Source: an uncultured Spirochaetota bacterium
GTDB lineage: Bacteria; Spirochaetota; Spirochaetia; SZUA-6; Fen-1364
Direction: 5' to 3'
Assembly: GCA_963734545.1 (NCBI GenBank)
Contig: CAVTHO010000003.1
Span: forward strand, 128,001-192,000
Length of the DNA stretch: 64,000 bases
The notes under the pieces were generated by a model. The model did not search any database and was not told where the DNA came from. It saw only the letters and a list, made by a program, of their open reading frames with translations. Below are positions 3,474 through 38,038 of this stretch, in pieces; position 1 is the first letter of the stretch, and every line of letters begins with the position of its first letter. Position numbers and translations under genes: made by a program.

Positions 3474-4200
3474 ATGTTCGAACGCCTGCATTCGCAGAAG
3501 AACTACATGCAGATCGCGCGGCAGATCCGCAATCTGATCCGTGATGGAACCTTGAAGGTGGGGCAGCAGCTCCCGCCCGAACGGGCCCTCGTGGAGCAGT
3601 TCGGCGCTTCCCGGGCGAGCATCCGGGAGGCGTTGAGCGCGCTGGAGATGCTCGGGCTGATCGAGTGCAGGAGCGGACAGGGCAACTACATCAAGGCGGA
3701 CGGCTCCACCGGCACGATCGACGGGGAGATGCTCCGCACCCTGCTGCTGGACCACGACCCCTACGAGATTTTCGAGACCCGTCTCGAGCTGGAGCCCAGC
3801 ATGTCCGCCCTTGCGGCGGAGCGGGCTACCGACGAGGAACGGGACAAGCTGAAGGCCCACGTGGAGACACTGGCCGCGCTCGGCGAGCCGGATCCGCGCC
3901 GAGGGTTTCAAAGACGCGACCATCGAAGAATACATGGAAGAAGACAGGAAGTTCCACCTGCAGATCGGCAGATGCGCCCACAACAATGTGCTTTTCACGG
4001 TTTTTTCAGGGGTGAACCTCATGATGAAAGAGACCCACTGGAAGGCAATGAAGAGCAAAGGGTTGATGGACGAGAGCAATATCACTGCATACGCGGTCGA
4101 GCATGAGGCCATCCTGGCCGCCATATTGTCGAAAGACCCCCGGGCGGCCCAGCGGGAAGCGAAAAAGCACATCCTCATGCTGAAGAAGACTCTGTTTTAA
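3474..4200 (+). CDS. GntR/FadR-family transcriptional regulator (frameshift near 3890)
   Basis: LPPERALVEQFGASRASIREAL wHTH; the FCD domain continues in ORF 3934-4200 (DRKFHLQIGRCAHN...EHEAIL). Confidence 0.88.
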
Positions 4201-4228
4201 GAACCGATTTCAATACGGAGGAAGGAAA

Positions 4229-5122
4229 ATGCTTTCAGGGAGCGAAGTCAAAGGAGTCATCCCGGCCCTTGTCACACCGTTCACGAAGAACGACCAGGTG
4301 GACCTGAAGGGCGTGGAGACGATCACGAAGTTCCTCGTGGAGAACGGCGTGCATGCCCTGATGCCCGTGGGCGGGACGGGGGAGTTTCCCAGCCTCCTGC
4401 GGGAGGAAAAGCGGGACGTGGTCGCGGCCGTGGCACGCGTGGCCAAGGGGAAGGTCCCCATCATCCCGGGAACGGCCGCCTGCAGCACGCGCGAGGTGAT
4501 CCTCCTCAGCAACGAAGCGTACGAAGCGGGGGCCGACGCGGTGATCGTGACCGCGCCCTACTACTTCAAGCTCCCCGATGAGTCGCTCATCCAGCACTAC
4601 ACGACCGTGGCGCACAACGTCGACTGCCCTGTTGTCGTGTACAACAATCCCCTCTATACCGGCAATCCCATGAGCCCGCAGCTCATCGCGGGGCTCATGG
4701 CGGTGAAGAACATCATCGGCGTGAAGAACAGCGCCTCTGACATGGGCCAGCTCATCGAAATGATCCGTCTTTCCCCCCAGGGGAAATCCCTGTGCACCGG
4801 CATCGACAGCCAGTTCTACCCGGCGCTGTGCGTGGGGGCCTCGGGTCTCTACTCCACTGCCGCCGGAATCATTCCTGCCCAGATGGTGAAGCTGTACGAG
4901 CTGTTCCTCCAGGGAAAACACGCGGAGGCGCTTGCGCTCAACATGAAGCTCCAATCCTTGAACAGGTACCTCGAGTACGATCCGGGGTACGTGGCCCCGG
5001 CCAAGGAGGCGCTCAATCTGCTGGGTCTTCCCGGCGGGTGCCTGCGCGCGCCCCTGCCCCAGCTTACCGCGGCGGAAAAGGCGGGCGTGAAGGCCGCGCT
5101 CACGACCATCGGGGTCTTATGA
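4229..5122 (+). CDS. DapA/NAL-family class I aldolase/lyase, probably not true DHDPS
   Basis: IPALVTPF, GGTGEF, YNNP, Schiff-base Lys in GVKNS. Confidence 0.85.
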   Translation: MLSGSEVKGVIPALVTPFTKNDQVDLKGVETITKFLVENGVHALMPVGGTGEFPSLLREEKRDVVAAVARVAKGKVPIIPGTAACSTREVILLSNEAYEAGADAVIVTAPYYFKLPDESLIQHYTTVAHNVDCPVVVYNNPLYTGNPMSPQLIAGLMAVKNIIGVKNSASDMGQLIEMIRLSPQGKSLCTGIDSQFYPALCVGASGLYSTAAGIIPAQMVKLYELFLQGKHAEALALNMKLQSLNRYLEYDPGYVAPAKEALNLLGLPGGCLRAPLPQLTAAEKAGVKAALTTIGVL

Positions 5123-7189
5123 AGCTCCGAATGGGTGTCGACACCGGAGGCACTTTCACCGACGGTGTGGTGATCGACGCACACGGCGCCATCCACAACT
5201 TCAAGGAGCTGTCCACGCCGAAGGATCCCTCCATCGGCCTGTACAATGTCATCCGCAAGGCCGCCGCGCATTTCGGCAAGGACGTGAAAGGCTTTCTCGG
5301 GGACCTCGACTTCTTCGCGCACGGCACCACCGTGGCGACCAATACGCTTCTCACGGGAACGGGAGCATGCACGGGGCTCATTCTCACGAAAGGGTTCCGT
5401 GACACGCTGGAGATGCGGAGGGCCCACAAGGAAAACATCTGGGACCTCTACCTGCCCGTGGCCCCGCCCCTCGTGCCCCGGCGCCTGCGCATCGGCGTGC
5501 GGGAAAGGATCGACTGCGCGGGGCGCATCGTGCAGCCCCTCGAGGAGCAGGACGTGCGGGACGCGTGCGCGATTTTCAAGCGGGAGGGCGTGAAGGCGGT
5601 GGCCGTGTGCACCCTCTTCTCCTTCCTCAATGACGCGCACGAAAAGGCCATCCAGGCCATCGTCCGGGAGGAGATGCCCGACGCGTTCATCTCCATCTCC
5701 TCCGAGGTGCTTTCCCAGATACGCGAGTATGAGCGCATGTCGACCACCGTGGCGAACGCCTACGTGGGACCCCGGCTGACCGTCTACCTGTCGACCCTCG
5801 AGCGGAAGCTGAAGAATGACGGGCTCTCCCGGGCCTTCTACATCACTGCCTCGAACGCCGGGGTCATGACGGCGGAAACGGCCATTCGCCACGCATCCGC
5901 GACCCTGCTCTCCGGCCCGGCCGCCGGCGCCGTGGGGGGCATATTCTTCGCCGAGCTGCTCGGCCGCGGCAACCTCATCACCATGGACATGGGAGGTACC
6001 TCGTTCGACGTGACCCTGGTGAGCGAGGGCAAGGTGACGCTGAGCACCGAGGGCTCCATTGCCGGCTACCGGATCGCCAAGCCGATGATCGACATCAACA
6101 CGATCGGCGCGGGAGGCGGCTCGATCGCCTGGATCGACGCCGGCGGGATGCTCAAGGTGGGGCCGGCCTCGGCAGGCTCCGACCCCGGGCCCGTCTGCTA
6201 CGACCTGGGCGGAGAAAAGCCCACGGTGACGGATGCGAACCTCCTCCTCGGGTTCCTGGACAAGGACTACTTCCTCGGGGGAGAGATGAAGGTCAACGAG
6301 GGGCGGGCGCGGGCAGCGATGCAGAAGCTGATCGCGGAACCGCTCGGAATGTCCGTCGAGCAGGCGGCCGCGGGCGTGTTCCGGATCATCAACCAGAGCA
6401 TGGCGGATGCCACCAAGGTGGTGTCCGTCCAGCGCGGCCACGATCCGCGCGAGTATGCGCTGGTGAGCGCCGGCGGGGCGTGCTCCATCCATGCGTGCAA
6501 GATCGCGGAGGAGGTCGGCTCCACGACCGTCATTGTGCCGCGGGCGGCCAGCGTCTTCTGCGCGCTGGGCATGCTCGAGTCCGACATCCGCCTGGACACC
6601 TTGAAGACCTGTCACGCGGTGATCCCGGGAATCGATCTGGACGAATTCAACCGGATCATTGCCCAGGCGGAAAAGCAGGCCCTCACGGAGCTGCTGCAGG
6701 AGGGCGTGGAACGGGAGCGCGCGCGGCTGGTCAGGCATCTGGACATGCGCTACGTGGGCCAGCATCACGAGGTGAGCGTCGAGATTCCCTCCGGCTGCCT
6801 CATCGAAGAAAAGCACGTCGCGACAATCTCGGACGCCTTCCACAAGGCCCACGAGAGGCTCTATACGTACGCCACGCCGGAGAATCCGCAGGAGATCATG
6901 AATCTCCGCATCACTGCCGTCGGCGCGGTGGACAAGACGGGGCTTTCCCCGCGCCCCCTCGGAGGGCAGGACGCCTCGAAGGCGCGCAAGGGAACGCGGA
7001 AGCTGCGCTTCCAGGACAGCGACAAATGCGTCGAGGTCCCGGTCTACGACAGGGACCGCCTGGCGCCGGGAAACACGGATACCGGGTCCCGCGGTCATCG
7101 AGGAGCGGATTACCACCATCGTGGTGCACCCCGGCTGGGACGCGCAGGTGGATGCGTTCGAGAACGTGGTGATGGAGGCGCGGGCATGA
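5119..7189 (+). CDS. Hydantoinase/oxoprolinase subunit A (ATP-dependent lactamase); one extra base near 7078
   Basis: GVDTGGTFTD, HGTTVATN, LSGPAAG, DMGGTSFD; the C-terminus PGPAVIEERITTIVVHPGW lies in a shifted frame ending TGA 7189. Confidence 0.9.
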
Positions 7190-8958
7190 GCGTCGCAGAG
7201 GCAGAATCCGCGAAGAAGGAATTCGAAGGGGCGCGGGACCCCATCACCCTCTCCGTCATCTACAATCGCCTGCTCACGATCAACCAGGAGATGGGGATCA
7301 CCATGATCAACACCTCCATCTCCCCGATCTTCGCGGAGGTGCACGACTTCTCCTGCGCAATCTGCGACTGGGCGAACAGGATCGTGGCGCAGATCGACGG
7401 GGTGCCGTCCCATACCGCCTCGGTCATGGAAGCGGTCAAGGCAGTCGGCCGGGAGTTCGGCGACGACATACACCCCGGCGATGTGTTCGTGCTCAATGAC
7501 CCGTACCTCGGCGGCACGCACCTGCCCGACATCACCATCATGAAGCCCGTCTACTACGAGGGGAAGCTCCAGTTCATCGCCATCAATCGCGCGCATCACG
7601 GCGACGTGGGCGGCATCGAGCCGGGCTCCTACGCGCCGAGCGCCCGCGAGCTCTTTCACGAGGGAATCAGGATCCCGCCGCTGCGCATCTATCGGGACGA
7701 AAAACCCATCATGGACGTGGTGAACATGATCCGCATCAACACCCGGATGCCCGACGCCCTGTGGGTGGACATGAAGGCGCAGGTGGCCTCCTGCCGCGTG
7801 GCGGAAAAGCGGATCCTCGAGCTCCTGGCCAAGTACGGGGTCGAGAAGACGCGCGCGACCATCGAGGACATCCACGGATACGCGGAGCGCCGGATGCGCC
7901 GGGAGATCGAGCGCCTGCCGGACGGCGTCTACAACGGGGAGACATTCCTCGATTCCGACGGATTTACCGACACGCCCATCAGGATCAGGGTGTCCATCCG
8001 CATCAAGGGCGACGAAGCCTGGGTGGATTTCGACGGGTCGGATCCCCAGGTGACCGGATTCGTGAACTCCCCGATGGCCAACACGGCCACCTGCGTGTAC
8101 GTGGCTTTTCTCACCACGGTCACGACACCCGACATTCCCCACAACGAGGGCGTGTACCGGCCGGTGCACATCAGCGCGCCGGAGGGAAGCATCGTGAATC
8201 CCCGGTTCCCCGCGCCGGTGGCCTCCTGCACACTGGACACCGCGTGCGCCATCCTCGAGGCTTGCTGGATGGCGCTTTCCCAGGTGCTGCCGGACAGGGT
8301 CCCCGCCGGCTGGAACAGGTGGAACGGTCCCACGATCACCGGTGTCGATCCGAGGACGAACAACTTCTACGTCATGTTCGGGTTCAATGGGTTCGGCGGC
8401 GCGGGCGGCATGCCCGGCATGGACGGCCGGCACTATATCGGGGACGGCATCGACCTCGGCGGATTGATCGCGCCGAACATCGAGACGAACGAGAGCGACT
8501 ATCCCCACCTCACGGAGTTCAATGAGCTCACCACGGATTCCTGCGGCGCCGGAAAGTGGCGCGGCGGCTGCGGAGCGCGCTACAGGGTGACGCTGCATGA
8601 CGCGAGCCCCACACTGGTGATGTTCGGAGACGGCAAGAAGACGGCGCCCTACGGGCTGTTCGGCGGCCGGCCGGGCTCGTGCAACCTCGCGTTCATCAAC
8701 GAGGGGAAGCCGACCCAGCGGGAGCTCAAGGCCAAGGAGACCGTATCCCTGGCCAGGGGGGACACCTACACGTCCTACCCTTCAGGCGGCGGGGGGTGGG
8801 GGAACCCGTTGGAGAGGGACCCCGAGAGCGTGCGGGACGATGTCCGCAACGAGATCATCTCCCCGCAGAGCGCGGAAAAGATCTACCGTGTGGTCCTCGA
8901 GGGGCCCGCATACACGATCAACAGGGAGCGGACCCTCGCGCTTCGCGGGGCGCGGTAG
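7186..8958 (+). CDS. Hydantoinase B/oxoprolinase subunit B
   Basis: DPITLSVI, NDPYLGGTHLPD, AHHGDVGG, GAGKWRGG, GGGGWG; ATGA overlap with subunit A stop. Confidence 0.92.
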   Translation: MSVAEAESAKKEFEGARDPITLSVIYNRLLTINQEMGITMINTSISPIFAEVHDFSCAICDWANRIVAQIDGVPSHTASVMEAVKAVGREFGDDIHPGDVFVLNDPYLGGTHLPDITIMKPVYYEGKLQFIAINRAHHGDVGGIEPGSYAPSARELFHEGIRIPPLRIYRDEKPIMDVVNMIRINTRMPDALWVDMKAQVASCRVAEKRILELLAKYGVEKTRATIEDIHGYAERRMRREIERLPDGVYNGETFLDSDGFTDTPIRIRVSIRIKGDEAWVDFDGSDPQVTGFVNSPMANTATCVYVAFLTTVTTPDIPHNEGVYRPVHISAPEGSIVNPRFPAPVASCTLDTACAILEACWMALSQVLPDRVPAGWNRWNGPTITGVDPRTNNFYVMFGFNGFGGAGGMPGMDGRHYIGDGIDLGGLIAPNIETNESDYPHLTEFNELTTDSCGAGKWRGGCGARYRVTLHDASPTLVMFGDGKKTAPYGLFGGRPGSCNLAFINEGKPTQRELKAKETVSLARGDTYTSYPSGGGGWGNPLERDPESVRDDVRNEIISPQSAEKIYRVVLEGPAYTINRERTLALRGAR

Positions 8959-8972
8959 GCAAGGAGGGAGAC

Positions 8973-10109
8973 ATGCAGCAGATCCGCAGGATCGCGGTGC
9001 TGGGTGCGGGAAGCGGCGGCTTCATGTGCGCGGCGGACCTTGGCAGCATGGGGTACGAAGTTGCCCTGTTCTCCCGGGAGCTCGACCGCATACGGGGTGT
9101 GAAGGAAAGGGGGACCATCGAGGTCCTCGACATAGATTCCCGGCCCACCGGGATGTGCGGCAAGGTGGCGCTTGCCACCAGCGACATCAGGGAGGCGGTG
9201 CGCGGCGCGCAGGTAATCCTCAATCCGATTCCCTATTTCGCCTGTGAAGAGTATGCCCGGATGGTGCTGCCCCATCTCGAGGAAGGGCAGGTCGTGATCT
9301 ATCTCGGAAAGGGCGGAGCCTGCCTCACGTGGGCCAAGGTGATGCGCGAGCTCGGGATCCGCAGGAGAGTGTATCTTGCCGACACGAACACCCTTCCGTA
9401 CGGCGCGTCGCGGATGGGTGATCACCAGGTCAGGCTGGAGAACAGGACCCAGAATCTCATCCTCGCAACATTTCCGGGCAGGGACGTCGACGCCGTGGCG
9501 GCAGTGGCGGAGCAGCTGTTCACGAAGGCGCATGGCTATGACATCCGCAGGGGCCAGAACGCCATCGATTCGATCCTCGTGGACTACAACGCCATCACCC
9601 ACACTCCGCCCATGGTCTGCAACGCGGCGCGCATCGAGCTGGGGGAGAAGCCTTTTTTCCTCTTCGGGAAGAGGGAGAACACCCCGTCGGTGGTGCGGCT
9701 GATCGAGCGCATCGACAGGGAGCGAATGGCCATAGGCGAAGCCCTGGGGCTGAAGCAGTGGACGCTCGAGGAAGAGATCAAGATGGTGAAGTGGAATCCA
9801 CACGGCGAGGATTTCGTGCTTCCGCTGTACGAGGCCATCCACACGCCGTTTCTCGAGGTGTGTGAGGGCCCCTACACGCTGGACACCCGGCACCTCAAGG
9901 AAGACATACCCTACGGGCTGGTCACCTATTCGTCCCTGGGCCGGATGCTGGGAGTGCCGACGCCCGTGACAGATGCCATCATCACCATGTCCGAGGTGCT
10001 TCTCTCGAAAGATTTCCGCGCCATGGGCCGGACCGTGCAGTCCATGGGCATCAATCCTTCCTGGTCGCGCAGGAAACTGTCGAAATACCTGCGCGAGGGA
10101 GCAGCGTGA
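8973..10109 (+). CDS. NAD(P)-dependent opine (octopine/nopaline) dehydrogenase family protein
   Basis: IAVLGAGSGG Rossmann motif, TNTLPYGASR, NAITH, RHLKEDIPYGL. Confidence 0.88.
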   Translation: MQQIRRIAVLGAGSGGFMCAADLGSMGYEVALFSRELDRIRGVKERGTIEVLDIDSRPTGMCGKVALATSDIREAVRGAQVILNPIPYFACEEYARMVLPHLEEGQVVIYLGKGGACLTWAKVMRELGIRRRVYLADTNTLPYGASRMGDHQVRLENRTQNLILATFPGRDVDAVAAVAEQLFTKAHGYDIRRGQNAIDSILVDYNAITHTPPMVCNAARIELGEKPFFLFGKRENTPSVVRLIERIDRERMAIGEALGLKQWTLEEEIKMVKWNPHGEDFVLPLYEAIHTPFLEVCEGPYTLDTRHLKEDIPYGLVTYSSLGRMLGVPTPVTDAIITMSEVLLSKDFRAMGRTVQSMGINPSWSRRKLSKYLREGAA

Positions 10110-10137
10110 ACCACGTTCATACAAGGGGGAAACGAGC

Positions 10138-11139
10138 ATGAAAGACTTGAAGGGTCGAGATCTGAAGGGAATCGCCGATTTCACCGCCGAGGAGATCGAG
10201 TTCACGCTCGAAGTCTCCCGGCTCCTGAAGCTCGAGCAGAAGATGGGAAAGCCCCACCGGCTGCTGGAGGGAAAGACGCTGGCAGCCATCTTCGAGACGC
10301 AGTCCACCCGGACGAGCATTTCCTTCGAGACGGCCATGACCCAGCTCGGCGGCCACATGATCTACCTGGACGAGAACCGGATGTGGGTCGGCACCGCGGC
10401 AGAGGAAGACTGGCACGACACGGTGAAGACCATCGACCGCTACGCGGACGCAATCGCCTACCGGGCGATCCGGCGTGATATGCTGGAAAACGCCGCGGAG
10501 TACGCCCGCATCCCTCTCATCAATGCGTCCTGCCCCGTGGAGCATCCCTGCCAGGCATTCGCGGACGTCATGACCATGATCGAGAAGAAGGGCCCGGTGA
10601 AAAAGGCCAAGGTTGCGCTCCTCTGGGGCTACCGGACCGCGAACCCTCCGGCAGGCCTGACCAACTCGCTCATGCTGATGGCGGGAAAGCTCGGGTTCCA
10701 GCTCGACGTGGCGTGCCCGGTGGGATTCGATCCCGACATGGGCGTCAAGTCGGAGGCGGACCGGGAGGCCGCAGCGAGCGGAGGGAGCGTGAAGATCGTC
10801 CGTTCCTACGAGGAGGCGGTGAAAGACGCCGACTTCGTCAGCATCTACTCGTGGGTGTCACCCGAAGTTTTCGCCAAGGGACTGGAGACGCACTTCAAGG
10901 GAGACCCTGAGTTCCAGGAGAAGAAGAAAAAGCTGAAGGACGCCTGGTGCGTGAACAAGAAGACCATGAGCATGGCCCCCCGGGACAGCAGGGTGATGCA
11001 CTGCATCCCGGTGTCGAGGAACAACGAGGTGACGGACGAGGTACTGAACTCTCCGCAGAGCATCATCTTCGACGAGGCGGAGAACAGGCTGCACACCGAA
11101 AAGGCGATCCTGGCGCTCCTCATGGGCGGCTACAGGTAA
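10138..11139 (+). CDS. Carbamoyltransferase, ATCase/OTCase family, atypical (knotted YgeW/AOTCase-like)
   Basis: FETQSTRT, HPCQ, MHCIP, EAENRLH; lacks the OTCase DxxxSMG motif. Confidence 0.85.
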   Translation: MKDLKGRDLKGIADFTAEEIEFTLEVSRLLKLEQKMGKPHRLLEGKTLAAIFETQSTRTSISFETAMTQLGGHMIYLDENRMWVGTAAEEDWHDTVKTIDRYADAIAYRAIRRDMLENAAEYARIPLINASCPVEHPCQAFADVMTMIEKKGPVKKAKVALLWGYRTANPPAGLTNSLMLMAGKLGFQLDVACPVGFDPDMGVKSEADREAAASGGSVKIVRSYEEAVKDADFVSIYSWVSPEVFAKGLETHFKGDPEFQEKKKKLKDAWCVNKKTMSMAPRDSRVMHCIPVSRNNEVTDEVLNSPQSIIFDEAENRLHTEKAILALLMGGYR

Positions 11140-11151
11140 GGCAGGGGCTTC

Positions 11152-12462: not shown

Positions 12463-12474
12463 GCGGAGGGACAG

Positions 12475-14959: not shown

Positions 14960-14997
14960 AGCGCGCTCGACCTGAAATGGAAAGGAGGTGAATCAGC

Positions 14998-19315: not shown

Positions 19316-19325
19316 GGGAGGGGCA

Positions 19326-22059: not shown

Positions 22060-22063
22060 GAAA

Positions 22064-23443: not shown

Positions 23444-23454
23444 AGGAAGCTCGC

Positions 23455-29300: not shown

Positions 29301-29333
29301 GGCGGCCGACAGCCGAGTGAGAGGAGCTACGAT

Positions 29334-30360: not shown

Positions 30361-31805
30361 TGATACTTGCAGTCGACGTGGGGACCTCGGTCCTCAAGGG
30401 GGGGCTGTTCGACAGGCACGGTGAACCCCGGTCCCGCGCCGAATCGCCCCTCGAGCTCCTGGCGCATCCCGATCCGCTGTGGCACGAATCCGACGCGAGG
30501 GAGTGGGTCACCGCGCTCCGTCTGGTCACGCGTCGTCTCCGCCTGTCCCATGCCGGTCCGCTCGATGCCGTCGTGGTGAGCGGCAATGGCCCGACCCTGC
30601 TCCCCGTCGGCGCGGACGGGATGCCGTTGACGCCCGCGATGACGTGGATGGACAGGCGGGGCGTGGCAGAGGCCGGAATCATCTCCGAGAAGAGCGGCCT
30701 GCCGACGGACCCCACCTTCTATCTTCCCAAGGCGTTCTGGCTGTACCGGAATCGACCGGACGTGTACGAGAAGACCCGCTGGTTCTTCTCGTGTCCCGAG
30801 TTCATCGCGTACACGCTCACCGGGGAGGCGGTCACCTTCCTCCCGACTCCGCAGTACACGCGCCTGATCTGGGAGGAGAAGCTGATCCGTGATCTCGGCA
30901 TGGCGCCGGAGAAGTTTCCGCCCTTTATCCGGTCCGGCAAGGTGCTGGGCAGGGTGAGCGCGGCGGGAGAGAAAGCCACGGGAATACCCGCCGGCGTTCC
31001 GGTCGTGGCGGGAGGGCCCGACTTTCTCGTCTCCCTTCTGGGCACGGCCACTGTCCTGCCGGGCCGGGCGTGCATCAGGTCCGGCACGTCGGAGGGCATC
31101 AACCTCTGCTCCCGCATCCCGACCGCGGATCGGCGGCTCCTGTGCTTCAGTCACATTGCGGAGGGTTTCTACAACGTTTCCGGCATGATCTCGACGTCGG
31201 GCAAGGCACTCGAGTGGCTCAAGGACACGATCGGCAGGTCCGCGGACAGCTACGAGAGGGTCTTCGAAGACATCGAGCAGGTGCCGCCCGGGGCCGACAG
31301 CCTCCTGTTTCTCCCCTACCTGGCCGGAGAGAGGGCGCCGCTCTGGGACCCCTGCGCGCGCGGCGCCTTCATCGGGCTCACTCTGAATCATCACGGCCGC
31401 GAGATGACGCGCGCCGTGGTCGAATCAGTGGCGTACGCGATCCGCGACGTGGTCGAGGTCATGGAGGATTGCGGGCAGTCCGTGCAGGACCTGCGCATCA
31501 CGGGCAACCCTTCGCGGAGCCGTCTCTGGAACCAGATCAAGGCGGACGTGACGGGACGGCGCATCCTCGTCCCCGTGCTGCAGGATTCGGATCTCGCCGG
31601 CGACGTGTGCCTCGCGCTGCATGCCCTGGGCGAATACGAATCCGCCGCCGCCGCCTCCGAGGCCATCGTGAAGATGGGAATGGTCTTCGAGCCGAACGCG
31701 GAGAACAAGGGCCTGTACGATGATATGTTCCGCCTCTACCGCGAATCCTACACCGGTCTCCGCGCAGTGTTTCAAAAACTTTCGAGCCTCAGGAGCACAC
31801 CATGA
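30360..31805 (+). CDS. FGGY-family carbohydrate kinase (xylulo/ribulokinase-like)
   Basis: LAVDVGTS, WMDRR, GGPD, SGTS, LPYLAGERAP. Confidence 0.9.
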   Translation: MILAVDVGTSVLKGGLFDRHGEPRSRAESPLELLAHPDPLWHESDAREWVTALRLVTRRLRLSHAGPLDAVVVSGNGPTLLPVGADGMPLTPAMTWMDRRGVAEAGIISEKSGLPTDPTFYLPKAFWLYRNRPDVYEKTRWFFSCPEFIAYTLTGEAVTFLPTPQYTRLIWEEKLIRDLGMAPEKFPPFIRSGKVLGRVSAAGEKATGIPAGVPVVAGGPDFLVSLLGTATVLPGRACIRSGTSEGINLCSRIPTADRRLLCFSHIAEGFYNVSGMISTSGKALEWLKDTIGRSADSYERVFEDIEQVPPGADSLLFLPYLAGERAPLWDPCARGAFIGLTLNHHGREMTRAVVESVAYAIRDVVEVMEDCGQSVQDLRITGNPSRSRLWNQIKADVTGRRILVPVLQDSDLAGDVCLALHALGEYESAAAASEAIVKMGMVFEPNAENKGLYDDMFRLYRESYTGLRAVFQKLSSLRSTP

Positions 31806-32596
31806 CAGTCGGCAAGAGCATCAGAGAGTCGTCCCTCTTCAGGCGCGCCACGGGCAGGACCGTCATCGTGGCCCTCGATCACGGCGGCATCGCGGGCCCC
31901 ATCGCGGGAATCGAGCGGCCCGCCGAGGTCGTCCGGGCCTGCCGCGAGGGAGGCGCGGACGCGATCCTCGCCACGCGCGGCGTGGTGACGGCCTCCCAGG
32001 GTGAATGGGACCGGAGCATGTCCGTCATCCTCCGCCTCACCGGAGGATTCACCGTGCTGGGAGGCAAGTTCGAGGAGGAGCTCATCTCGAGCCCCGAGGC
32101 GGCGCTCTCTCTCGGCGCGGCGGGCGTGGCGGTCACGGTGAAGTTCGGCCACGAGCGGGAAGGGGAGTTCGCGCGGCAGGCTTCCCTCGTGGCGGACAGC
32201 TGCGAGCGATGGGGACTGCCCCTGATGATCGAGGCCATGGCAAAGAGCAAGGACATGAAGGCGAGCGACCCGCGGGGCGTCCTGCTCGCGTCCCGCGCCG
32301 CGCAGGAGATCGGGGCGGACATCGTGAAGACCTGGTACACGGGAGACCCCGAGAGCTTCCGCCGCGTCGTGGAAGGCTGTCCCGTGCCCATCGTGATCCT
32401 CGGGGGGGAAAAGTCGGAAACGCTCGAGGCGGTCTTCAGTGACGTGTACGGCGCCCTGCAGGCCGGCGCAAAGGGGATCGCGATCGGGCGCAACATCTGG
32501 CAGCACGGCAAGACCCGGGAAATGGTGGAGGCCATGGTCGGTCTCGTGCACGAGAGCTGGACGGTGAAGCAGGCGCTGCACCACCTGGGCGGCTGA
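31802..32596 (+). CDS. Class I DhnA/LsrF-family aldolase
   Basis: VALDHG, GADIVKTWYTG (Schiff-base Lys), GRNIWQ. Confidence 0.9.
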   Translation: MTVGKSIRESSLFRRATGRTVIVALDHGGIAGPIAGIERPAEVVRACREGGADAILATRGVVTASQGEWDRSMSVILRLTGGFTVLGGKFEEELISSPEAALSLGAAGVAVTVKFGHEREGEFARQASLVADSCERWGLPLMIEAMAKSKDMKASDPRGVLLASRAAQEIGADIVKTWYTGDPESFRRVVEGCPVPIVILGGEKSETLEAVFSDVYGALQAGAKGIAIGRNIWQHGKTREMVEAMVGLVHESWTVKQALHHLGG

Positions 32597-32597
32597 G

Positions 32598-33740
32598 GTG
32601 CCGGCGCTCGCCTTTGCGACCAACTTCCTGTGGGTCATGGTGATCGGCCTCCTGGGGCCGTCCCTTCCCGCCATGGTCGCGGACCTGGGCATCACGTATG
32701 CGCAGGCCGGGTTCTTCTTCACCCTGCTCTCATTCGGGTCCCTGATCGGCACGAGCCTCGGCGCCATCGGCAGCGACTACGTTCCACGGAAGCTCCTGTT
32801 CGGCCTGTGCATCTTCGTTCTTTCCGTGGGCCTGTTCGTCCTGGGACTGATGCCGAGCTACGTGCTGGTCGCGCTCGTCATCTTCCTCCTGAGCCTGACG
32901 GGGAGCCCGATCGGCGCCATCGGTCAGAGCATCATGCTGGGAATGTTTCCCGGCAAGCGGGAGAAATACCTCTCCTACATGGCGTTTTTCGGCGCGCTCG
33001 GCAACCTCCTTGCTCCGGTGGTCGTGTCTCTGAACTTCACTGCCTCCCTCAGCTGGAGGTGGCCGTTCATCGAGACTGCAGTCCTGGCGTTCATTGTGTT
33101 CATCGCGCTCCTCGCCACACCCATCCCTTCTGCTGCACCGGTGCATCGGCCCGAGAAGCTCGCCACGATCATGAAGAATCGCGGCGTCCTGTCCTCCGCC
33201 GTGCTCATATTCTTTTCCGTGGGCGCGGACCTCGGTTTCTCGTACTGGCTGGCCGAGTACTTCAAGAGCGAGCTGCACGCGAGCCTTCGAATGTCGAGCT
33301 CGGTGGTGGGCGTCTACCTGGTGGGCATCCTCGTGGGCAGGATCCTGGTACCCGTGTTTCTCAAGAGGATCAGCGCGCGCGCCAACCTCATCATGGGGCT
33401 CGGTGTCGCGCTCGTCTCCATTGTTCCCTTCATCATCGTCCCGTCGGTTCCGCTCAAGATCGCGCTCTGCGCGGTGTACGGCTTCGGGATAGGGCCGGTT
33501 TTTCCCCTGCTGGTGGCACGGGGATCGCGCGAGTTTCCTTCCCAATCAGGAGCGGTCACCGGTGTCCTCTTTGGGTGCCTGTCCCTGGGCGGCATGATCT
33601 TTCCTCTGCTGGTGGGGGCGATTGCAGGTTCCGCCGGGATTGCACGATCCTATTTCTTCTGCGCGGTGATCGCCTGCGGCCTTCTCGTGGCGGTGATCGC
33701 GGGCCCTACAGAACGACCCGCGAGTCGCCGTCCCGCTTGA
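32598..33740 (+). CDS. MFS transporter
   Basis: About 12 hydrophobic segments, GPSLP, WRWPF. Confidence 0.85.
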   Translation: MPALAFATNFLWVMVIGLLGPSLPAMVADLGITYAQAGFFFTLLSFGSLIGTSLGAIGSDYVPRKLLFGLCIFVLSVGLFVLGLMPSYVLVALVIFLLSLTGSPIGAIGQSIMLGMFPGKREKYLSYMAFFGALGNLLAPVVVSLNFTASLSWRWPFIETAVLAFIVFIALLATPIPSAAPVHRPEKLATIMKNRGVLSSAVLIFFSVGADLGFSYWLAEYFKSELHASLRMSSSVVGVYLVGILVGRILVPVFLKRISARANLIMGLGVALVSIVPFIIVPSVPLKIALCAVYGFGIGPVFPLLVARGSREFPSQSGAVTGVLFGCLSLGGMIFPLLVGAIAGSAGIARSYFFCAVIACGLLVAVIAGPTERPASRRPA

Positions 33741-35481
33741 GAAGACCGTCCTTTTCCATGCGATTCAGCAGGGGGATGACGTATTTCCTGGAGAGGCCCG
33801 TCCTCTCCTTGGCCTCGGGAATCGAGAACCGCTCGGCCTTTTTCCTGCCGGCCAGCACCCGCGCCGCGAGCTCGTCGAACACGGTCCGCGCGTAGCAGAT
33901 GCCCCCTTCCAGGGGCACGACAAGGGAGAGCCGGATCAGGGTTTTCAGCTCCTTCTGTGCGCCCTCGATTCCCGTATGGGTCGATTCGAACCCTGCTTTT
34001 CCCGCGCGCTCGATTTCGGAGAGGAGCCGCCGCCCCCGCGCGGAAAGCCCGCTCTTGTCCGGCTCGGCCCGCGCGAAGTACAGGTCGCGGGCAGGCGTCA
34101 AGACCCCCTTTGCCACGAGTGAGGCAAGCACGCTCTTCAGGGCGTCCCCGTCGATGCGCAGCTTGCTCTCCAGCTCGCGGGATGACACGCCGGCAGGCAG
34201 GGCGGCGACGGCGAGTATGTCCGCGGTGAGCTTCTCCAGCCACGGCGGGTGGAAGAGCCACTCGTCGATCACGACAGGGCTCCCGGCGTCGTCGAGGGAC
34301 AGGTCCTTCGGCTTCCGCGCGAGGCCGTGGAAGCGGAGCTCGAGCAGAAAGCGGTCCGGGTCACGCGGCCTTTCCGGCATCGCGGCGAGCAGCCCGGCGA
34401 GCCGTCCGCGCTCTTCTTTCTTCACCTCGCCGAACCAGAGTATGCGGCCGCTGCCCAGGATCTCGCTGCCCCCGTGGCGGATGACGAGAAATGGCTGACC
34501 CCAGAGCGCCGGCAGCGGCTCCCGAAGCTGGATCCGCGCGACCCGGCGGTCTCCCATGTAATGAAGCTGCGCCATCACGTGTCCGGTGCCCAGCGCCACT
34601 TCCACCTCGGAATGGTTTCTCATCTCCGACAGCCCCTGGAGCCCCTCGACGGGCCGCACGCGTGCCATGAGCTCCGTTTCGGAAGAGAACGGCGCGCGCG
34701 GGGAGGTGATGCAGTTGCCGCGCCTGATCTCGCCGCGGGTTTTCTGGAGGTTGAGCGCGAGCCGCGACGTCGGTCTTGCTTCGCTCACCGAGGCGTTGTA
34801 GCTCTGCATGCCGCGGACCCTCACGGTTTCCCGCTGCGGCAGGAGCACCAGCTCGTCCCTTTCCGTGCACGGCGCGCCCTTGAGGCTGCCGGTCACCACG
34901 AGCCCCGATCCCTTGATCGTGAACACCCGATCCACGTAGAGAAAGGGAAAGCCGGGCGCGTCGCCGCGCATCGGGAGAGCGGAGACAGTCCTTGTGATGA
35001 GGTCTTTCAGCGCACCCACGTTCCTGCCCGTGAGCGCGGAGACCGCGATGCAGGGAGGCTCCGCGCCGAAGATCTTCGCGCAGCGCGCCCGCGCATCTCT
35101 TCCAATCTCTTCCACGCGGTTTTCCGCGGCCGCGTCCGTCTTGGTCACGACGACGATGACGGAGCCCACGTCGAGGGACGCGAGGACCACGGCGTGGTCC
35201 TGGGTCTGCTGCATCCACCCGTCGTCCGCCGCCACGAGAAGCAGGGCGCAGTCCAGGCTCCAGGCGCCCGCCACCATGTTGCGGATGAACCTTTCGTGCC
35301 CCGGCACGTCGATGACGCCGATGGGCTCGCCGTTCTCCCCCGCAAACCATGCGAACCCGAGGTCGATCGTCATGCCGCGGGCTTTCTCTTCGGGCAGCCG
35401 GTCCGGGTTGATTCCCGTCAGCGCCTCGATGAGCGTGGTCTTTCCGTGATCGACGTGTCCCGCGGTCCCGATGACGTGCAA
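33706..35481 (-). CDS. selB: Selenocysteine-specific elongation factor
   Basis: TTG start; HVIGTAGHVDHGKT, RGMTIDLGF, DVPGHERF, C-terminal SRKYVIPLL winged helix. Confidence 0.93.
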   Translation of the reverse strand: MHVIGTAGHVDHGKTTLIEALTGINPDRLPEEKARGMTIDLGFAWFAGENGEPIGVIDVPGHERFIRNMVAGAWSLDCALLLVAADDGWMQQTQDHAVVLASLDVGSVIVVVTKTDAAAENRVEEIGRDARARCAKIFGAEPPCIAVSALTGRNVGALKDLITRTVSALPMRGDAPGFPFLYVDRVFTIKGSGLVVTGSLKGAPCTERDELVLLPQRETVRVRGMQSYNASVSEARPTSRLALNLQKTRGEIRRGNCITSPRAPFSSETELMARVRPVEGLQGLSEMRNHSEVEVALGTGHVMAQLHYMGDRRVARIQLREPLPALWGQPFLVIRHGGSEILGSGRILWFGEVKKEERGRLAGLLAAMPERPRDPDRFLLELRFHGLARKPKDLSLDDAGSPVVIDEWLFHPPWLEKLTADILAVAALPAGVSSRELESKLRIDGDALKSVLASLVAKGVLTPARDLYFARAEPDKSGLSARGRRLLSEIERAGKAGFESTHTGIEGAQKELKTLIRLSLVVPLEGGICYARTVFDELAARVLAGRKKAERFSIPEAKERTGLSRKYVIPLLNRMEKDGLLKRDGDSRVVL

Positions 35482-35486
35482 GGCGC

Positions 35487-36834
35487 TCACACCCCGAGGG
35501 CGGTCCGAATGGCGGAGGCGATATCGTGTTCGCTTTCGCCGTGCATCGTGGCGAGCGAGAGTCGTCACCCGGCCGTCCTCGATTATGCCGATGATCGGTG
35601 TCTCCCGGCTGCGGAGGGACCGAAGGAGGTCTTCCGGCTTCTGTTCCGAGGCGAGCTCGATGGAGAGCGATGGAAAAAACTCGTCCGGGGCGCTTCCCCC
35701 GCCCGTGGAGATTTTCGAGCTGACGAGAGACGCACTGCCGCGCGGGATATCGCGGAGGATTCTTTCCCCCATTGCGCGCAGCTCCTCGGGCGGCAGGGCG
35801 AGAGTGCGTTCCGCCTGCCCGATTTCCGTGCCATTGAGCCGCGCCACGAGATGGTGCTCGAGGAGGGAGTAGATGGTCTTGCCCGGTCGAACGGCGCGCA
35901 GCAGGGGATGCGCCGCGAGGCGGCGCACGAGATCCCTTTTTCCCGCGACGATTCCCGCCTGGGGGCCTCCCAGCACCTTGTCTCCCGAGAAGCACACCAG
36001 GTGGGCCCCCTTTTCCAGCAGGGACCGCACGCGTGTCTCCCCGGCGATATTCTCCGAGACGGTGCCCGACCCCTGGTCCACGGCGAGCACGACGTCCGGT
36101 GGGAGACTCTTCGCAAGCTCCGCAATATCCGGTTTTTCAGTGAATCCCCTGACCCGGAAGTTGGAGGTGTGCACCAGAAGCACCATCCCGGTATTCTCCG
36201 TGACCGCGTCCCGGTAGTCCGCCAGCGTCGTGATGTTCGTCGTGCCCACCTCGACCAGTCGCGCTCCCGAGAGGGCGAGTATCTCGGGGATCCGGAACCC
36301 CCCGCCGATCTGCACCTGCTCTCCCCGGGATACAATGACATCCCTTCCCCGTGCCAGCGCGGCGAGCGTGAGGAGCACCGCCGCGGCGTTGTTGTTCACC
36401 ACCAGCGCGTCCTCACAACCCGTCAGGAGGCCCAGCAGCTCGGGACAGATCCCGTTCCTGCTGCCCCGCCTGCCCGTGTCCAGGTCGAGCTCCACGTTGG
36501 AATACCCGGTGTTCGCGTCCGCCGCATTGTCCCAGACGGACCGGGAAAGCGGTGAGCGGCCCATGTTGGTGTGCAGGATGATGCCCGTCGCGTTGATCAC
36601 CTTCCTGATCCGCTTCGAGGCATGCCGCTGGCATTCCTGCTCGATCCGGCTCACGAGGGCGCTCTCTTCGAATACCGTTCCCTGCTCGCGTATCTCATTG
36701 CGCGCCTCTGCGAGGACATCCGAAACGATCCGCGCCACCAGCGGCCTGCTGAGAGCCGGGCACTGCGCCGCGATTATGGGATGCTCGAGCAGCTTCTCTA
36801 CCTGGGGGATGCTCCTGTAGCTTTTTTCGGGCAT
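35487..36834 (-). CDS. selA: L-seryl-tRNA(Sec) selenium transferase (frameshift near 35565)
   Basis: VINATGIILHTNMGR, VNNNAAA, EVGTTN, FSGDKVLGGPQAG. Confidence 0.93.
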
Positions 36835-36842
36835 TGCTGTCG

Positions 36843-36931
36843 CGGAAGAGGCAGGAATCGAACCTGCCGCTGCAATATCTGCAGCCAACGGTTTTGAAGA
36901 CCGTGGAGACCACCAGATCCCATCAGCTTCC
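36843..36931 (-). tRNA. selC: tRNA-Sec (anticodon UCA)
   Basis: GGAAGCTG...ACGGT-CTTCAAA-ACCGT, long variable arm GCTGCA..TGCAGC, GCAGG-TTCGATT-CCTGC; located between selD and selA. Confidence 0.93.
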
Positions 36932-36936
36932 GGCCC

Positions 36937-36965
36937 ATGATAGGAGCCGCTGACGGGTTAGTCAA
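36937..36965 (-). promoter_or_regulatory. sigma70 promoter for selC-selA-selB
   Basis: TTGACT, 17 nt, TATCAT ending 5 nt upstream of the tRNA 5' end. Confidence 0.65.
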
Positions 36966-36982
36966 TGCGGACGCCTTCGGCG

Positions 36983-38038
36983 TCAATCCACATGGATTGT
37001 ACCCGCGGGCACCGACGGGTCCGCTTCTCCAATGATCACGGCATCGATGCCCGCGCTTTTCAGCTCAGCGACACACTGCTCTGTCTCCCTTTCCGGAACA
37101 GCGGCGAGAAGACCGCCGGAGGTTTCCGGGCTGAAGAGCATCCTGCGCGTGAGCTCCGGGATATCCGAGCCGAATCGGACAGAAGGCTCGAAAGCGGCAC
37201 GGTTGTTCTTCGTGCCCCCGGGGAAGGCGCCGGCTTCTCCCGTGGCCATCGCTCCGTCGATGAAATGCATGCGCGAGGCATGGAAGCGCAGGCCGATCGA
37301 GCTCTTGCGGGCCAGGTCCAGACCGTGGCCAAGAATCGAGAATCCCGTCACGTCCGTGCACGCGGAAACGCCGCGCGCGGCGAGGGTCCGAGACGCGTCC
37401 CGGTTGAGGACCTTCATCGAAGCCACGGCGCGTGCGAGCACGGCCGCGGGCGCGATGCCCCGTTTGAGCGCCGTTGTGATGACCCCCACGCCCAGGGGCT
37501 TGGTGAGCACCAGCGAATCCCCGGCCCGGACGCCGGTCTTGACGAACATGCGGCGCGGATCGACGAACCCGATGACGGCAAGACCGTAGGTGGGCTCCTG
37601 CGAGCTGATCGTGTGGCCGCCCACGACCACGCAGCCCGCCTCCTTCGCTTTCTCCCCTCCGCCGCGCATGATCTCGGAGATCACGTCGGCGGGCAGGGTC
37701 GAGGGGAAGCCTGCGATGTTCAGCGCCAGTGCAGGCTCGCCGCCCATGGCATAGACGTCGCTCAGGGCGTTCGCCGCGGCAACCGCGCCGAAGTCGTAGG
37801 GATCGTCCACCACCGGCGTAAAAAAGTCCGCGGTGAAGACGAGCGCCCGTGAGTCATCAAGACTGTACACCGCCGCATCGTCCCCGGCCTCGAGCCCTAC
37901 GAGGAGCTCGGGCCGGCTCCCTGCGGGGAAGAGATCCGCGAGAGGGCGCAGAACCTGCGCCAGGGCTTCGGGGCCCATTTTCGCGGCTCAACCACCGGCG
38001 GAGCAAAGGGACGTGAGCCGTATCGGGTCTCGCGCCAT
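36983..38038 (-). CDS. selD: Selenophosphate synthetase, Sec at UGA 37988-37990
   Basis: MARDPIRLTSLCSAGG-U-AAKMGP; DDAAV, DFFTP, NALSDVYAMG, TDVTGF, PETSGGLL; hairpin GGGC-CCCGAA-GCCC (37963-37976) as candidate SECIS. Confidence 0.93.

Follow-up and report, generated by a model that had tools for sequence, protein, structure and literature searches.

Gene content of the locus

The window, by which we mean the whole 64,000-nucleotide stretch analysed here, belongs to an uncultured Spirochaetota bacterium (GenBank assembly GCA_963734545.1, contig CAVTHO010000003.1, positions 128,001 to 192,000). It carries a cluster of 26 genes, all on the plus strand between positions 3474 and 33740 and separated by short gaps. 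The cluster joins a riboflavin-type importer and a set of dehydrogenase, kinase and aldolase genes to a molybdenum (Mo) hydroxylase and a selenocysteine (Sec)-containing reductase system of the Grd type (Table 1). As argued below, this composition points to a probable role in the anaerobic catabolism of riboflavin.

The host genome is 5.14 Mb in size, consists of 10 contigs and is 89% complete. Its nearest named relatives are metagenome-assembled genomes (MAGs) of Spirochaetales, and the G + C content across the cluster is about 63–68%. Genes were called by Pfam and NCBIfam scans together with reading of the three forward frames. The genome of the window is labelled G000, while the L-numbers and the other G-numbers denote compared loci and genomes.

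Behind the cluster, selB, selA, the gene for the Sec transfer RNA (tRNA-Sec) and selD follow on the minus strand up to position 37978. A sequence-only reading of the region had described co-oriented, tightly packed genes; this holds for the 26 genes from 3474 to 33740, but not for the end of the span, which is occupied by the minus-strand Sec genes. The gene content that it had listed, namely the importer, the dehydrogenase, kinase and aldolase, the Mo hydroxylase, the Grd system and the Sec machinery, was borne out by the Pfam and NCBIfam scans.

Table 1 Genes of the cluster and of the adjoining Sec machinery, in window coordinates
Feature	Position	Strand	Supporting match or observation
GntR/FCD-family regulator	3474..4200	+	Pfam GntR, FCD; one frame change near 3885-3915
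DapA/DHDPS-family class I lyase	4229..5122	+	Pfam DHDPS 225.6 bits; TIGR00674 213 bits, cut-off 206
HyuA (hydantoinase/oxoprolinase A, ATP-dependent lactam hydrolase family)	5119..7243	+	Pfam Hydant_A_N, Hydantoinase_A, Hydant_A_C
HyuB (hydantoinase/oxoprolinase B)	7135..8958, start approximate	+	Pfam Hydantoinase_B 567 bits
Opine (octopine)-dehydrogenase-family oxidoreductase	8973..10109	+	Pfam Octopine_DH 111 bits
Ornithine carbamoyltransferase (OTC)-like carbamoyltransferase	10129..11139	+	Pfam OTCace_N, OTCace
GrdB-type selenoprotein B	11152..12462	+	Pfam GRDB 427 bits; Sec TGA 12193-12195, UxxCxxC
GrdE-type partner of GrdB	12475..13792	+	about seven frame changes; SGNYVWPCF read across three frames
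Long TrxB-like thioredoxin reductase, frame changes	13786..14960	+	tblastn with intact 393-aa L001 protein; frames read
GrdA selenoprotein A	14998..15459	+	Pfam GRDA 230.9 bits; Sec TGA 15121-15123, CFVU
Thioredoxin (Trx)	15472..15792	+	Pfam Thioredoxin 70.8 bits
GrdC, component C beta, frame changes	15785..17334	+	NF040746 387 bits, cut-off 450, two stretches; DUF5940
GrdD, component C alpha, frame change near end	17319..18350	+	NF040747 313.9 bits, cut-off 350
Mo-hydroxylase FAD subunit	18481..19324	+	Pfam FAD_binding_5, CO_deh_flav_C
Mo-hydroxylase 2Fe-2S subunit	19326..19787	+	Pfam Fer2_2, Fer2
Mo-hydroxylase molybdopterin subunit, four frame pieces	19887..22050	+	Pfam Ald_Xan_dh_C, MoCoBD_1, MoCoBD_2
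SsnA/ATZ-TRZ-type amidohydrolase (heteroaromatic deaminase/chlorohydrolase group)	21977..23443	+	Pfam Amidohydro_1
PreA-like protein: dihydroorotate/dihydropyrimidine-dehydrogenase fold with two 4Fe-4S motifs	23443..24649	+	Pfam DHO_dh, Fer4 families
RfuA-type riboflavin-binding lipoprotein	24714..25730	+	BMP family; top solved relative 4IIL
RfuB-type ABC ATPase, second half in other frame	25795..27390	+	Pfam ABC_tran
Two permeases, RfuC/RfuD type	27331..29300, boundary near 28390	+	Pfam BPD_transp_2 in both
Zn-dependent alcohol/polyol dehydrogenase (ADH)	29334..30360	+	Pfam ADH_N, ADH_zinc_N; last ~50 residues out of frame
FGGY-family kinase	30360..31805	+	Pfam FGGY_N, FGGY_C
DhnA/DeoC-type class I aldolase	31802..32596	+	Pfam DeoC 137.9 bits; NF005556 248.5 bits, cut-off 241
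MFS transporter	32598..33740	+	Pfam MFS_1
selB (~33706-35495) and selA (~35508-36840)	33706..36888, one open frame	-	Pfam SelA, GTP_EFTU, SelB-wing_3
tRNA-Sec	36844..36931	-	Rfam RF01852 69.2 bits; ARAGORN, anticodon tca
selD, selenophosphate synthetase	36983..37978	-	Pfam AIRS, AIRS_C

The RfuA-type importer

Compared with solved structures, the binding protein of the cluster matched TP0298/RfuA of Treponema pallidum (4IIL) over its full length with 281 bits, against 62.6 bits for the purine-nucleoside binder PnrA. Residues Y27, N82, Y157 and W189 distinguish riboflavin binders such as RfuA from PnrA, and S24 forms the single direct polar contact (PMC3573665). All five residues are kept in the window protein and in nine of nine full-length orthologues from related modules; the partial orthologue of L099 covers three of the positions and agrees at each. 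The BMP paralogue of the window's genome does not share these residues. The ATPase gene, whose NCBIfam matches span only model positions 3–346 of 510, and both permease genes lie directly downstream, which completes the RfuABCD set. These results support an assignment as RfuA-type protein and predicted riboflavin binder, and the RfuABCD-like importer of the sequence-only reading stands. Modified nucleosides and pterins, which it had named as alternative substrates, find no support. The RibF gene of the genome is located on another contig.

The Grd-type reductase

GrdB of the cluster scored 434 bits for glycine, 471 bits for sarcosine and 405 bits for betaine reductase (TIGR01917, NF040794 and NF040795 tested). 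These values are below the cut-offs of 602, 800 and 775. Five of seven canonical loci passed the glycine cut-off of 602.2 with 669–742 bits, and the other two reached 601 bits. In a GrdB tree of 85 rows (quick search, root unknown), a branch with a support of 100 in the Shimodaira–Hasegawa-like approximate likelihood ratio test (SH-aLRT) separates the window, four Spirochaetales MAGs, the Bacillota locus L004 and three Lachnospiraceae loci of the fin-like type described below from the 76 others. The GrdB thus does not group with the canonical reductases, in line with the sequence-only reading.

Cys242 of GrdE gives rise to the pyruvoyl group, as mapped by mass spectrometry in Clostridioides difficile (PMC9908766). 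At this place, the window GrdE (SGNYVWP) and four of four intact Spirochaetales orthologues carry Tyr, while the canonical SGNCVS was found in eight of eight sequences. Among the GrdE proteins compared, the position is Tyr or Leu in 7/7 of the fin clade and Cys in 8/8 canonical ones. A protein B without this carbonyl fits a substrate nitrogen that is unable to form a Schiff base, and flavin N10 would be such a nitrogen. The GrdI protein of betaine reductase is likewise unprocessed. Features shared with canonical systems are the Sec residues of GrdB (UxxCxxC) and GrdA and the presence of GrdC and GrdD. The Grd system of the cluster is the only one in the genome.

In the five Lachnospiraceae genomes of L030, L051, L059, L060 and L075, no homologue of the aldolase was found, and their GrdB loci are canonical grd operons. 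The nearest GrdB from outside the spirochaetes (58%) lies in a Bacillota MAG (L004, 1–21278) in the order aldolase-GrdB-GrdE-TrxB-Trx-GrdA-GrdC-GrdD. Upstream, this locus encodes a PRD-domain regulator, a flavin-reductase-domain protein, a phosphofructokinase-family kinase and enzyme I of a phosphotransferase system (PTS). It may represent a PTS-linked form of the same chemistry.

Conservation and distribution

Species-representative genomes were scanned with GrdB and 80 loci were kept. GrdB identities among them are 71–82% for four Spirochaetales MAGs, 58% for L004 and at most 51% for the other 75. The entire order from the GntR regulator to the MFS transporter, with the Sec genes behind, recurs in all four close Spirochaetales MAG loci, so the arrangement is not a product of chance. 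The regulator heads the cluster in L001, L002, L003 and L014, the MFS gene follows the aldolase gene in L083, L084, L085, L087, L092, L094, L095, L096 and L099, and selD adjoins the cluster in L085 and L087, too. In G001, the order is split between two contigs and interrupted by a second BMP-ABC set. This set (L086 9048–10538; L087 1–3228) stands in tandem before the RfuA-type set, and its binding protein is 37% identical to RfuA.

GrdB was detected in only 4 of 60 relatives (same genus 1/20, rest of the family 2/4, rest of the order 1/36), which characterises it as an accessory trait. RfuA orthologues (≥ 50% identity) are present in 22 and aldolase orthologues (≥ 65%) in 17 of the 60. Where both occur on one contig (G426, G427, G429, G434, G443, G448), they are within 8 kb of each other. 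The block RfuABCD-ADH-FGGY-aldolase-MFS is contiguous in G001–G004, G426, G429, G434, G443 and G448. GrdB was not found in G429, G434, G443 and G448, and the module block of these genomes is free of Grd, Mo and Hyu genes; G426 carries the long form of the cluster.

On the level of the phylum, an RfuA homologue was found in 47 of 400 sampled genomes. The aldolase accompanies it only in G230 and G376, which belong to other families and encode RfuABCD, ADH, FGGY kinase and aldolase in a different order, with no MFS gene in the stretch read; in the remaining 45 of the 47, none was found near it. The dehydrogenase-kinase-aldolase trio is therefore not part of plain riboflavin uptake. The importer thus works alone in most spirochaetes, while in some free-living lineages the trio has been added and accompanies it. 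That the trio belongs with the importer had been proposed from the sequence alone, and several Spirochaetota families do have the two in company, whether or not the reductase is present. The co-occurrence of the modules, which had been put forward as a check, was observed in Spirochaetales MAGs, in the short forms of other Spirochaetota and in metagenomes.

The genes for the Mo hydroxylase, the SsnA-like amidohydrolase and the PreA-like protein are confined to long forms. HyuAB, opine dehydrogenase-like and OTC-like genes are present in G000–G004, and the latter two also at the cut start of the metagenome locus L121; in G426, the 7 kb upstream of GrdB yielded no homologues of Hyu, opine dehydrogenase or OTC. 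The opine dehydrogenase-like gene precedes OTC-GrdB in L001, L002, L003, L014 and L121, and the DapA-like gene lies within the cluster only in the window and L001. DNA close to the window was found in wetland, peat and sediment metagenomes. No RNA runs were among the matches listed, which has no bearing on expression.

A transketolase gene is located inside or beside the module in G001 (L001 7968–10004) and G434 (L094 66–2042) and upstream of it in G426 (L098 1–1239); its 70% identical orthologue in the window's genome is on another contig. In G434, where GrdB was not found, selB and selA lie right behind the short module (L094 11647–17037), so the nearness of the Sec genes may reflect an inherited position rather than function.

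Relation to the fin neighbourhood

Clostridium scindens converts riboflavin to lumichrome without oxygen (Quiles Perez et al., J Bacteriol 2026, PMC13492142). According to that article, high riboflavin induces finA-K, which encode a RibF-like kinase, a class I aldolase, an ADH, an aldehyde dehydrogenase (ALDH), two Grd-family proteins and permeases, and a short form without finGHI occurs in a hydroxyethylflavin-making strain of F. fissicatena. The proposal made there is that a triose is freed first and that the two-carbon remnant is then cut by Grd-family proteins. The sequence-only reading had arrived at the same side-chain mechanism, triose release followed by a Grd reaction, which was thus proposed independently; the predicted importer, the trio and the Grd clade agree with it. 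Its statement that the pathway is undescribed and that no such cluster has been characterised is overtaken by the 2026 publication of the fin neighbourhood. In the literature searched, only Quiles Perez et al. link riboflavin or lumichrome to Grd-family proteins.

A search of 400 Lachnospiraceae genomes with the window aldolase yielded matches in 27/401, and the best 20 of 32 places were examined. GrdB-GrdE with ADH and aldolase were found at L102, L104 and L105, aldolase and ADH without Grd at L100, L103, L106 and L114, while the other 13 places are lsr-type or other loci by appearance. Pfam matches at L104 and L102 include a RibF-like kinase, an ALDH, a permease and a SorC-type regulator, which is the published fin composition. 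L102, L104 and L105 are called fin-like because their composition matches the published description (PMC13492142), not on the basis of named sequences. The window ADH is 38–41% and the aldolase 32–37% identical to those of the fin-like loci. In the aldolase tree, the Spirochaetota aldolases form a firm clade.

Outside the Lachnospiraceae, a treponeme-like genus (G171, G289) carries the complete fin-type set ALDH-GrdB-GrdE-aldolase-ADH-permease-RibF. When metagenomes were scanned with the alignment of the fin-type Grd clade, 80 loci were kept, 14 of them without a usable GrdE match. GrdB followed by GrdE with Tyr or Leu at the place of Cys242 was observed in 10 of the 80, and 9 of these 10 have an ALDH or a tungsten aldehyde:ferredoxin oxidoreductase (AOR) beside Grd. 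Their ALDH proteins are 58–77% identical to that of L104, and three fin-type loci with enough flanking sequence also show aldolase, ADH and RibF. In contrast, none of the 56 canonical metagenome loci has an ALDH or AOR beside Grd; a distant ALDH homologue (34%) occurs in one.

Candidates for aldehyde oxidation

In L001, L002, L003, L014, G426 and L121, genes for a tungsten AOR and a ferredoxin lie between GrdD and the Mo genes (AOR identified by Pfam in L002 and as tblastn homologues in the others). The window has just about 130 bases at this place, and its cluster contains no ALDH gene. An ALDH that is 60.6% identical to the fin-like one is encoded about 43 kb beyond the last plus-strand gene of the cluster, amid unrelated genes.

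The sequence-only reading had assigned the aldehyde oxidation to the Mo enzyme. For its large subunit (intact orthologue L086:1472–3763), the top solved relatives are nicotinate dehydrogenase, 4-hydroxybenzoyl-CoA reductase and xanthine oxidase; aldehyde oxidoreductases rank behind these, and no clear subfamily emerges from the solved structures. Since the nearest solved relatives are hydroxylases of N-heterocycles rather than aldehyde oxidoreductases, and AOR in relatives and ALDH in other lineages occupy this role, the assignment is doubtful. A role of the Mo hydroxylase as aldehyde oxidiser in this particular genome is possible. On the metagenome contig L193 (4788–12662), Mo-hydroxylase subunits 36–46% identical to those of the window directly precede a fin-type ALDH-GrdB-GrdE, which ties the Mo enzyme to this Grd clade in a second lineage.

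Additional enzymes and the possible fate of lumichrome

The OTC-like protein scored 273.1 bits with TIGR00658, just below the cut-off of 280.85. The PreA-like protein, with one frame change at about 23885, reached 130 bits with the PreA model NF006183 (cut-off 335). The hydantoinase is of the ATP-dependent A/B type; for HyuA, whose C-terminus is in another frame, the top NCBIfam match is caprolactamase alpha (697 bits, below the cut-off of 1000), and HyuB is 83–87% identical to that of L001. The models of anaerobic purine and urate degradation all remained below their cut-offs, namely SsnA with 247.7 of 444 bits for the amidohydrolase, YgeW with 91.6 of 453, far below, for the OTC-like protein, and xanthine dehydrogenase (XDH)-type models for the frameshifted Mo subunits, of which only pieces were scored. 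For the G001 orthologue of the amidohydrolase (L086:3735–5186), the top solved relatives are AtzA, methylthioadenosine/S-adenosylhomocysteine deaminase and 8-oxoguanine deaminase. A carbamate kinase is present in the window's genome.

Fermentation of creatinine or N-methylhydantoin to sarcosine, or of purines to glycine, was considered in view of HyuAB, the OTC-like protein and the amidohydrolase. Both were set aside, given that Cys242 is missing from GrdE and that this Grd clade goes together with aldolase, ADH and ALDH.

In the aerobic Lum pathway of Nocardioides simplex, a hydrolase opens the pyrimidine ring of lumichrome and the urea part is removed; a 52-kDa hydrolase then acts on an imidamide and a xanthine-oxidase-family enzyme hydroxylates a quinoxalinone (PMC12746152). 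By analogy, the extra genes could act on the pyrimidine ring of lumichrome, opening it and then taking it apart, and carbamoyl phosphate could provide a second source of ATP; we put this proposal forward only tentatively. The sequence-only reading had assigned the dismantling of a pyrimidine or pteridine ring to enzymes of the cluster, which is likewise a matter of analogy. The PreA-like reductase together with the amidohydrolase or HyuAB would open the ring, and the OTC-like enzyme would remove the ureido group as carbamoyl phosphate, from which carbamate kinase would form ATP. The SsnA-like protein would hydrolyse the amidine and the Mo hydroxylase would oxidise the quinoxalinone. It is rather doubtful, if conceivable, that the cluster contains the whole of an anaerobic route that runs through lumichrome and on past it, which would be the first of its kind and an oxygen-free mirror of Lum. 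If true, a new substrate class of Grd enzymes would be at hand, in which an N-carboxymethyl group is cut from a ring nitrogen without a pyruvoyl group. No pathway of anaerobic lumichrome breakdown was found in the literature searched.

Frame changes

Frame changes, which the sequence-only reading had missed, were found inside at least ten genes, namely those for GntR, HyuA, GrdE, TrxB, GrdC, GrdD, the FAD and large subunits of the Mo hydroxylase, PreA and the ABC ATPase. They look like indel errors of the assembly because the orthologues of the broken genes are intact and separate in relatives, the pieces are 55–88% identical to these orthologues without large deletions, and matching indels occur in metagenomes. 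The two pieces of the GntR gene, for example, align with the intact orthologue of L001. In short-read contigs of four wetland metagenomes, indels of one base coincide with the frame changes at 12576, 12704 and 13305 (GrdE) and 13910 (TrxB); 12 such sites are listed, with 82 further ones beyond the listing. Near-identical contigs with 3–7 substitutions carry 3 gaps per approximately 345–445 bases.

Genes elsewhere in the genome are split as well. The carbamate kinase gene lies in two frames (G000:C4:539492–540422) and RibF is matched over part of the model only (G000:C7:595272–595778), which fits genome-wide indel errors in the assembly. The rpoB gene is whole.

The apparent fusions HyuA-HyuB, ATPase-permease and ADH-FGGY are artefacts, and SelA-SelB is probably another. 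A natural oxoprolinase-like fusion of HyuA and HyuB was rejected, as relatives have two overlapping genes. The ADH-FGGY fusion was likewise discarded as Rosetta-stone evidence: it results from a double frame error in the window, and an in-frame stop interrupts the only long match, that of G443. The ADH frame ends at residue 341 or 342 in four relatives and at 338 in L095. SelA and SelB matches in L084 and L085 are separate stretches, about 80 bases apart.

Flanking region

Just after selD, a glyoxalase-family gene (38111–39169) and a gene for an acetolactate-synthase-type thiamine pyrophosphate (TPP) enzyme (40288–41955) follow. They were considered as parts of the cluster, given that the Lum pathway has a TPP-dependent decarboxylase, and were rejected since no homologue was found beside the cluster in L083–L087. 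Genes for a MASE11-GAF-GAF-HisKA_3 sensor kinase and a LuxR-type response regulator on the minus strand (42915–46644) are not kept beside the cluster in relatives either. A 519-amino-acid protein (48064–49623) consists almost entirely of ankyrin repeats, which is unusual for a free-living bacterium. The stretch from 54122 to 59639 is an island of low G + C content (43–46% versus about 63–68% over the cluster) and is probably acquired DNA. It encodes a 1029-amino-acid Eco57I/MmeI-type restriction-modification fusion and a 719-amino-acid protein without a Pfam match.

Proposed pathway and alternative explanations

We consider it probable, though well short of certain, that the locus serves anaerobic riboflavin (flavin) catabolism and is the spirochaete counterpart of fin. 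The most likely overall route would lead from riboflavin to dihydroxyacetone phosphate (DHAP), acetyl phosphate and lumichrome as a variant of the proposed fin pathway. We infer every enzymatic step of it from gene content, homology and co-occurrence. Riboflavin would be imported by RfuABCD. The Zn-dependent dehydrogenase would oxidise the C4′ hydroxyl of the ribityl chain and the FGGY kinase would phosphorylate the C5′ hydroxyl, in either order. The resulting chain, which resembles a ketose 1-phosphate, would be split by the class I aldolase between C3′ and C2′ into DHAP and 10-formylmethylflavin. An aldehyde-oxidising enzyme would convert the latter to 10-carboxymethylflavin; in relatives, this would be the tungsten AOR with its ferredoxin, and candidates in the present genome are the Mo hydroxylase and the distant ALDH. 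The selenoprotein pair GrdB/GrdE, devoid of a pyruvoyl group, would then take the carboxymethyl group off N10 and leave lumichrome. GrdA, GrdC and GrdD would turn the carboxymethyl group into acetyl phosphate, with electrons from the TrxB-like reductase and thioredoxin. Flavin products may be exported by the MFS transporter.

Several points weigh against this interpretation. Riboflavin is scarce in nature, and a locus of 26 genes for gaining energy from it seems odd. All links for this organism consist in homology and gene neighbourhood. An FGGY kinase with a flavin as its substrate is not known. The aldolase joins the fin aldolases rather than the lsr-type ones with a moderate SH-aLRT value of 84, and its identity to the former (32–37%) is no higher than to the latter (33–35%). 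The AOR of the relatives has no orthologue in the window's genome (best match 31%), the opine dehydrogenase-like, DapA-like and PreA-like proteins have no assured place in the route, and many genes are frameshifted in this assembly, which, if genuine, would mean a dead locus. Neither ribH, ribE nor a flavin mononucleotide (FMN) riboswitch was found in the 89% complete genome, nor an FMN riboswitch in the window, and the RfuA-type protein is the only one of its kind in the genome (RibU, RibM, RibN and other transporter families not searched). RfuABCD may thus serve vitamin supply first, and the importer probably also feeds the cell's own flavin needs. C. scindens is likewise a riboflavin auxotroph, and for this same paradox overflow or redox relief is discussed as a purpose (PMC13492142). 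The fin reference pathway is itself a proposal without enzymology.

The same chemistry might act on another ribityl-nitrogen substrate, such as 6,7-dimethyl-8-ribityllumazine, 5-amino-6-ribitylaminouracil or the deazaflavin FO from methanogen F420, with the ring-opening enzymes directed at the lumazine, uracil or deazaflavin ring. The side-chain logic would suit any N-ribityl group, and a simple uracil or lumazine ring would be a more fitting target for the PreA-like protein, the amidohydrolase and the carbamoyltransferase than the fused alloxazine; moreover, FO should be common in the wetlands, and DNA near that of the window comes from wetland, peat and sediment metagenomes. We nevertheless regard such a substrate as unlikely, given that the isoalloxazine-stacking residues Y27, N82, Y157 and W189 of RfuA are all kept (a pattern that does not tell flavin from deazaflavin) and that riboflavin induces the homologous neighbourhood of Lachnospiraceae, with lumichrome as the product (PMC13492142). 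Improbable, too, is a mosaic of adjoining operons in which RfuABCD supplies the vitamin, ADH, FGGY kinase and aldolase use a pentitol or pentulose, Grd performs a Stickland-type reduction, and the Mo hydroxylase, SsnA, PreA, HyuAB and OTC ferment a purine, a pyrimidine, hydantoin or a creatinine-type compound. The single RfuA of a probable riboflavin auxotroph, a kinase whose top NCBIfam match is xylulokinase (248.6 bits, below the cut-off of 380) and the transketolase beside the module in G001, G434 and G426 are in line with such a mosaic. The Mo hydroxylase, the SsnA-like protein, the carbamoyltransferase and the hydantoinase also resemble anaerobic purine/urate clusters, and the modules come and go, as seen from short forms without Grd and Mo genes and from the 7 kb before GrdB in G426, in which no Hyu, opine dehydrogenase or OTC homologue was detected. 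It is hard to reconcile, however, with a GrdE without Cys242, which speaks against glycine or sarcosine, and with SsnA, YgeW and XDH scores far below the cut-offs. In Lachnospiraceae, the treponeme-like genus and metagenomes, genes of this Grd clade stand together with those for aldolase, ADH, a kinase and an aldehyde oxidiser, an aldolase orthologue in only 17/60 relatives is not that of a housekeeping enzyme, and a single GntR gene and very short gaps suggest joint control.

Were the frame changes genuine, the cluster would be a decaying relic without function. We hold this to be very improbable: the number of affected genes (at least ten) and the missing AOR would fit decay, but the pieces retain 55–88% identity to intact orthologues without large deletions, independent short-read contigs have indels at matching places, and near-identical contigs differ chiefly by one-base gaps. 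Genes elsewhere (carbamate kinase, RibF) are split alike, and the state of the assembly, 10 contigs at 89% completeness, points in the same direction.

Implications

The anaerobic destruction of vitamin B2 has been an open question for decades, ever since hydroxyethyl- and formylmethyl-flavin were detected in the contents of the gut. Only in 2026 did the first candidate genes appear in print, as yet without enzymology (PMC13492142). The locus provides independent comparative support for fin, as a second flavin-specific part, the RfuA importer, accompanies here the same core of dehydrogenase, aldolase and Grd proteins that is linked to a RibF-like kinase in Lachnospiraceae. The system is modular and is found in Spirochaetota and wetlands besides the gut. 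What is new is the spirochaete architecture, with an Rfu importer, an FGGY kinase for RibF, tungsten AOR and Mo hydroxylase for ALDH, and a full GrdA/C/D-Trx set. A selenoprotein B without a pyruvoyl group and a candidate anaerobic route beyond lumichrome are also new. The reductase with a partner without a pyruvoyl site is a mechanistic prediction open to testing, and the extra genes are concrete candidates for anaerobic lumichrome breakdown. According to the literature, lumichrome and other riboflavin catabolites affect plants, quorum sensing and MAIT cells, so sinks for them matter.

Comparison with known systems

With the glycine, sarcosine and betaine reductases, the Grd system shares the protein families, the Sec motifs (UxxCxxC in B, CFVU in A), the expected product acetyl phosphate and thioredoxin as donor. 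It differs in the gene order, which is B-E instead of E-B, in the loss of the pyruvoyl-forming Cys and in the separate clade of its GrdB.

The combination of kinase and aldolase follows the logic of ketose-1-phosphate routes, such as those of L-fuculose and L-rhamnulose and the 5-deoxyribose DHAP shunt, where an FGGY-type kinase phosphorylates the primary hydroxyl next to the keto group of a 2-ketose and DHAP is split off. In contrast to these, the aldehyde would here bear a nitrogen-bound flavin, and the aldolase belongs to class I (DhnA type) and not to class II.

Aerobic riboflavin and lumichrome catabolism (RcaE of Microbacterium, Lum of N. simplex; PMC12746152) likewise has lumichrome as a hub, and its kinds of enzymes are matched in the cluster by amidohydrolase, HyuAB, carbamoyltransferase and Mo hydroxylase. 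The aerobic route depends on O2 (RcaE monooxygenase, P450, Rieske and catechol dioxygenases) and releases ribose, whereas DHAP and acetyl phosphate would be obtained here.

The closest known system is fin. Unlike fin, the spirochaete cluster has RfuABCD instead of a permease or RibU as importer, an FGGY kinase with no RibF-like gene in the cluster, and tungsten AOR and/or Mo hydroxylase instead of ALDH for aldehyde oxidation, the window cluster itself lacking a finG-type ALDH. GrdA, GrdC, GrdD, Trx, TrxB and the Sec genes are all within one spirochaete locus, and fin lacks the Mo hydroxylase, SsnA-like, PreA-like, HyuAB, opine dehydrogenase-like, OTC-like and DapA-like genes. The spirochaete host is free-living and comes from a wetland. 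Both systems have homologous Zn-dependent ADH and class I aldolase genes, GrdB and GrdE of the same clade in the order B-then-E with Cys242 lost, an aldehyde-oxidising enzyme beside Grd (in the spirochaete relatives), a transporter, and long and short forms, and the same chemistry is proposed for both.

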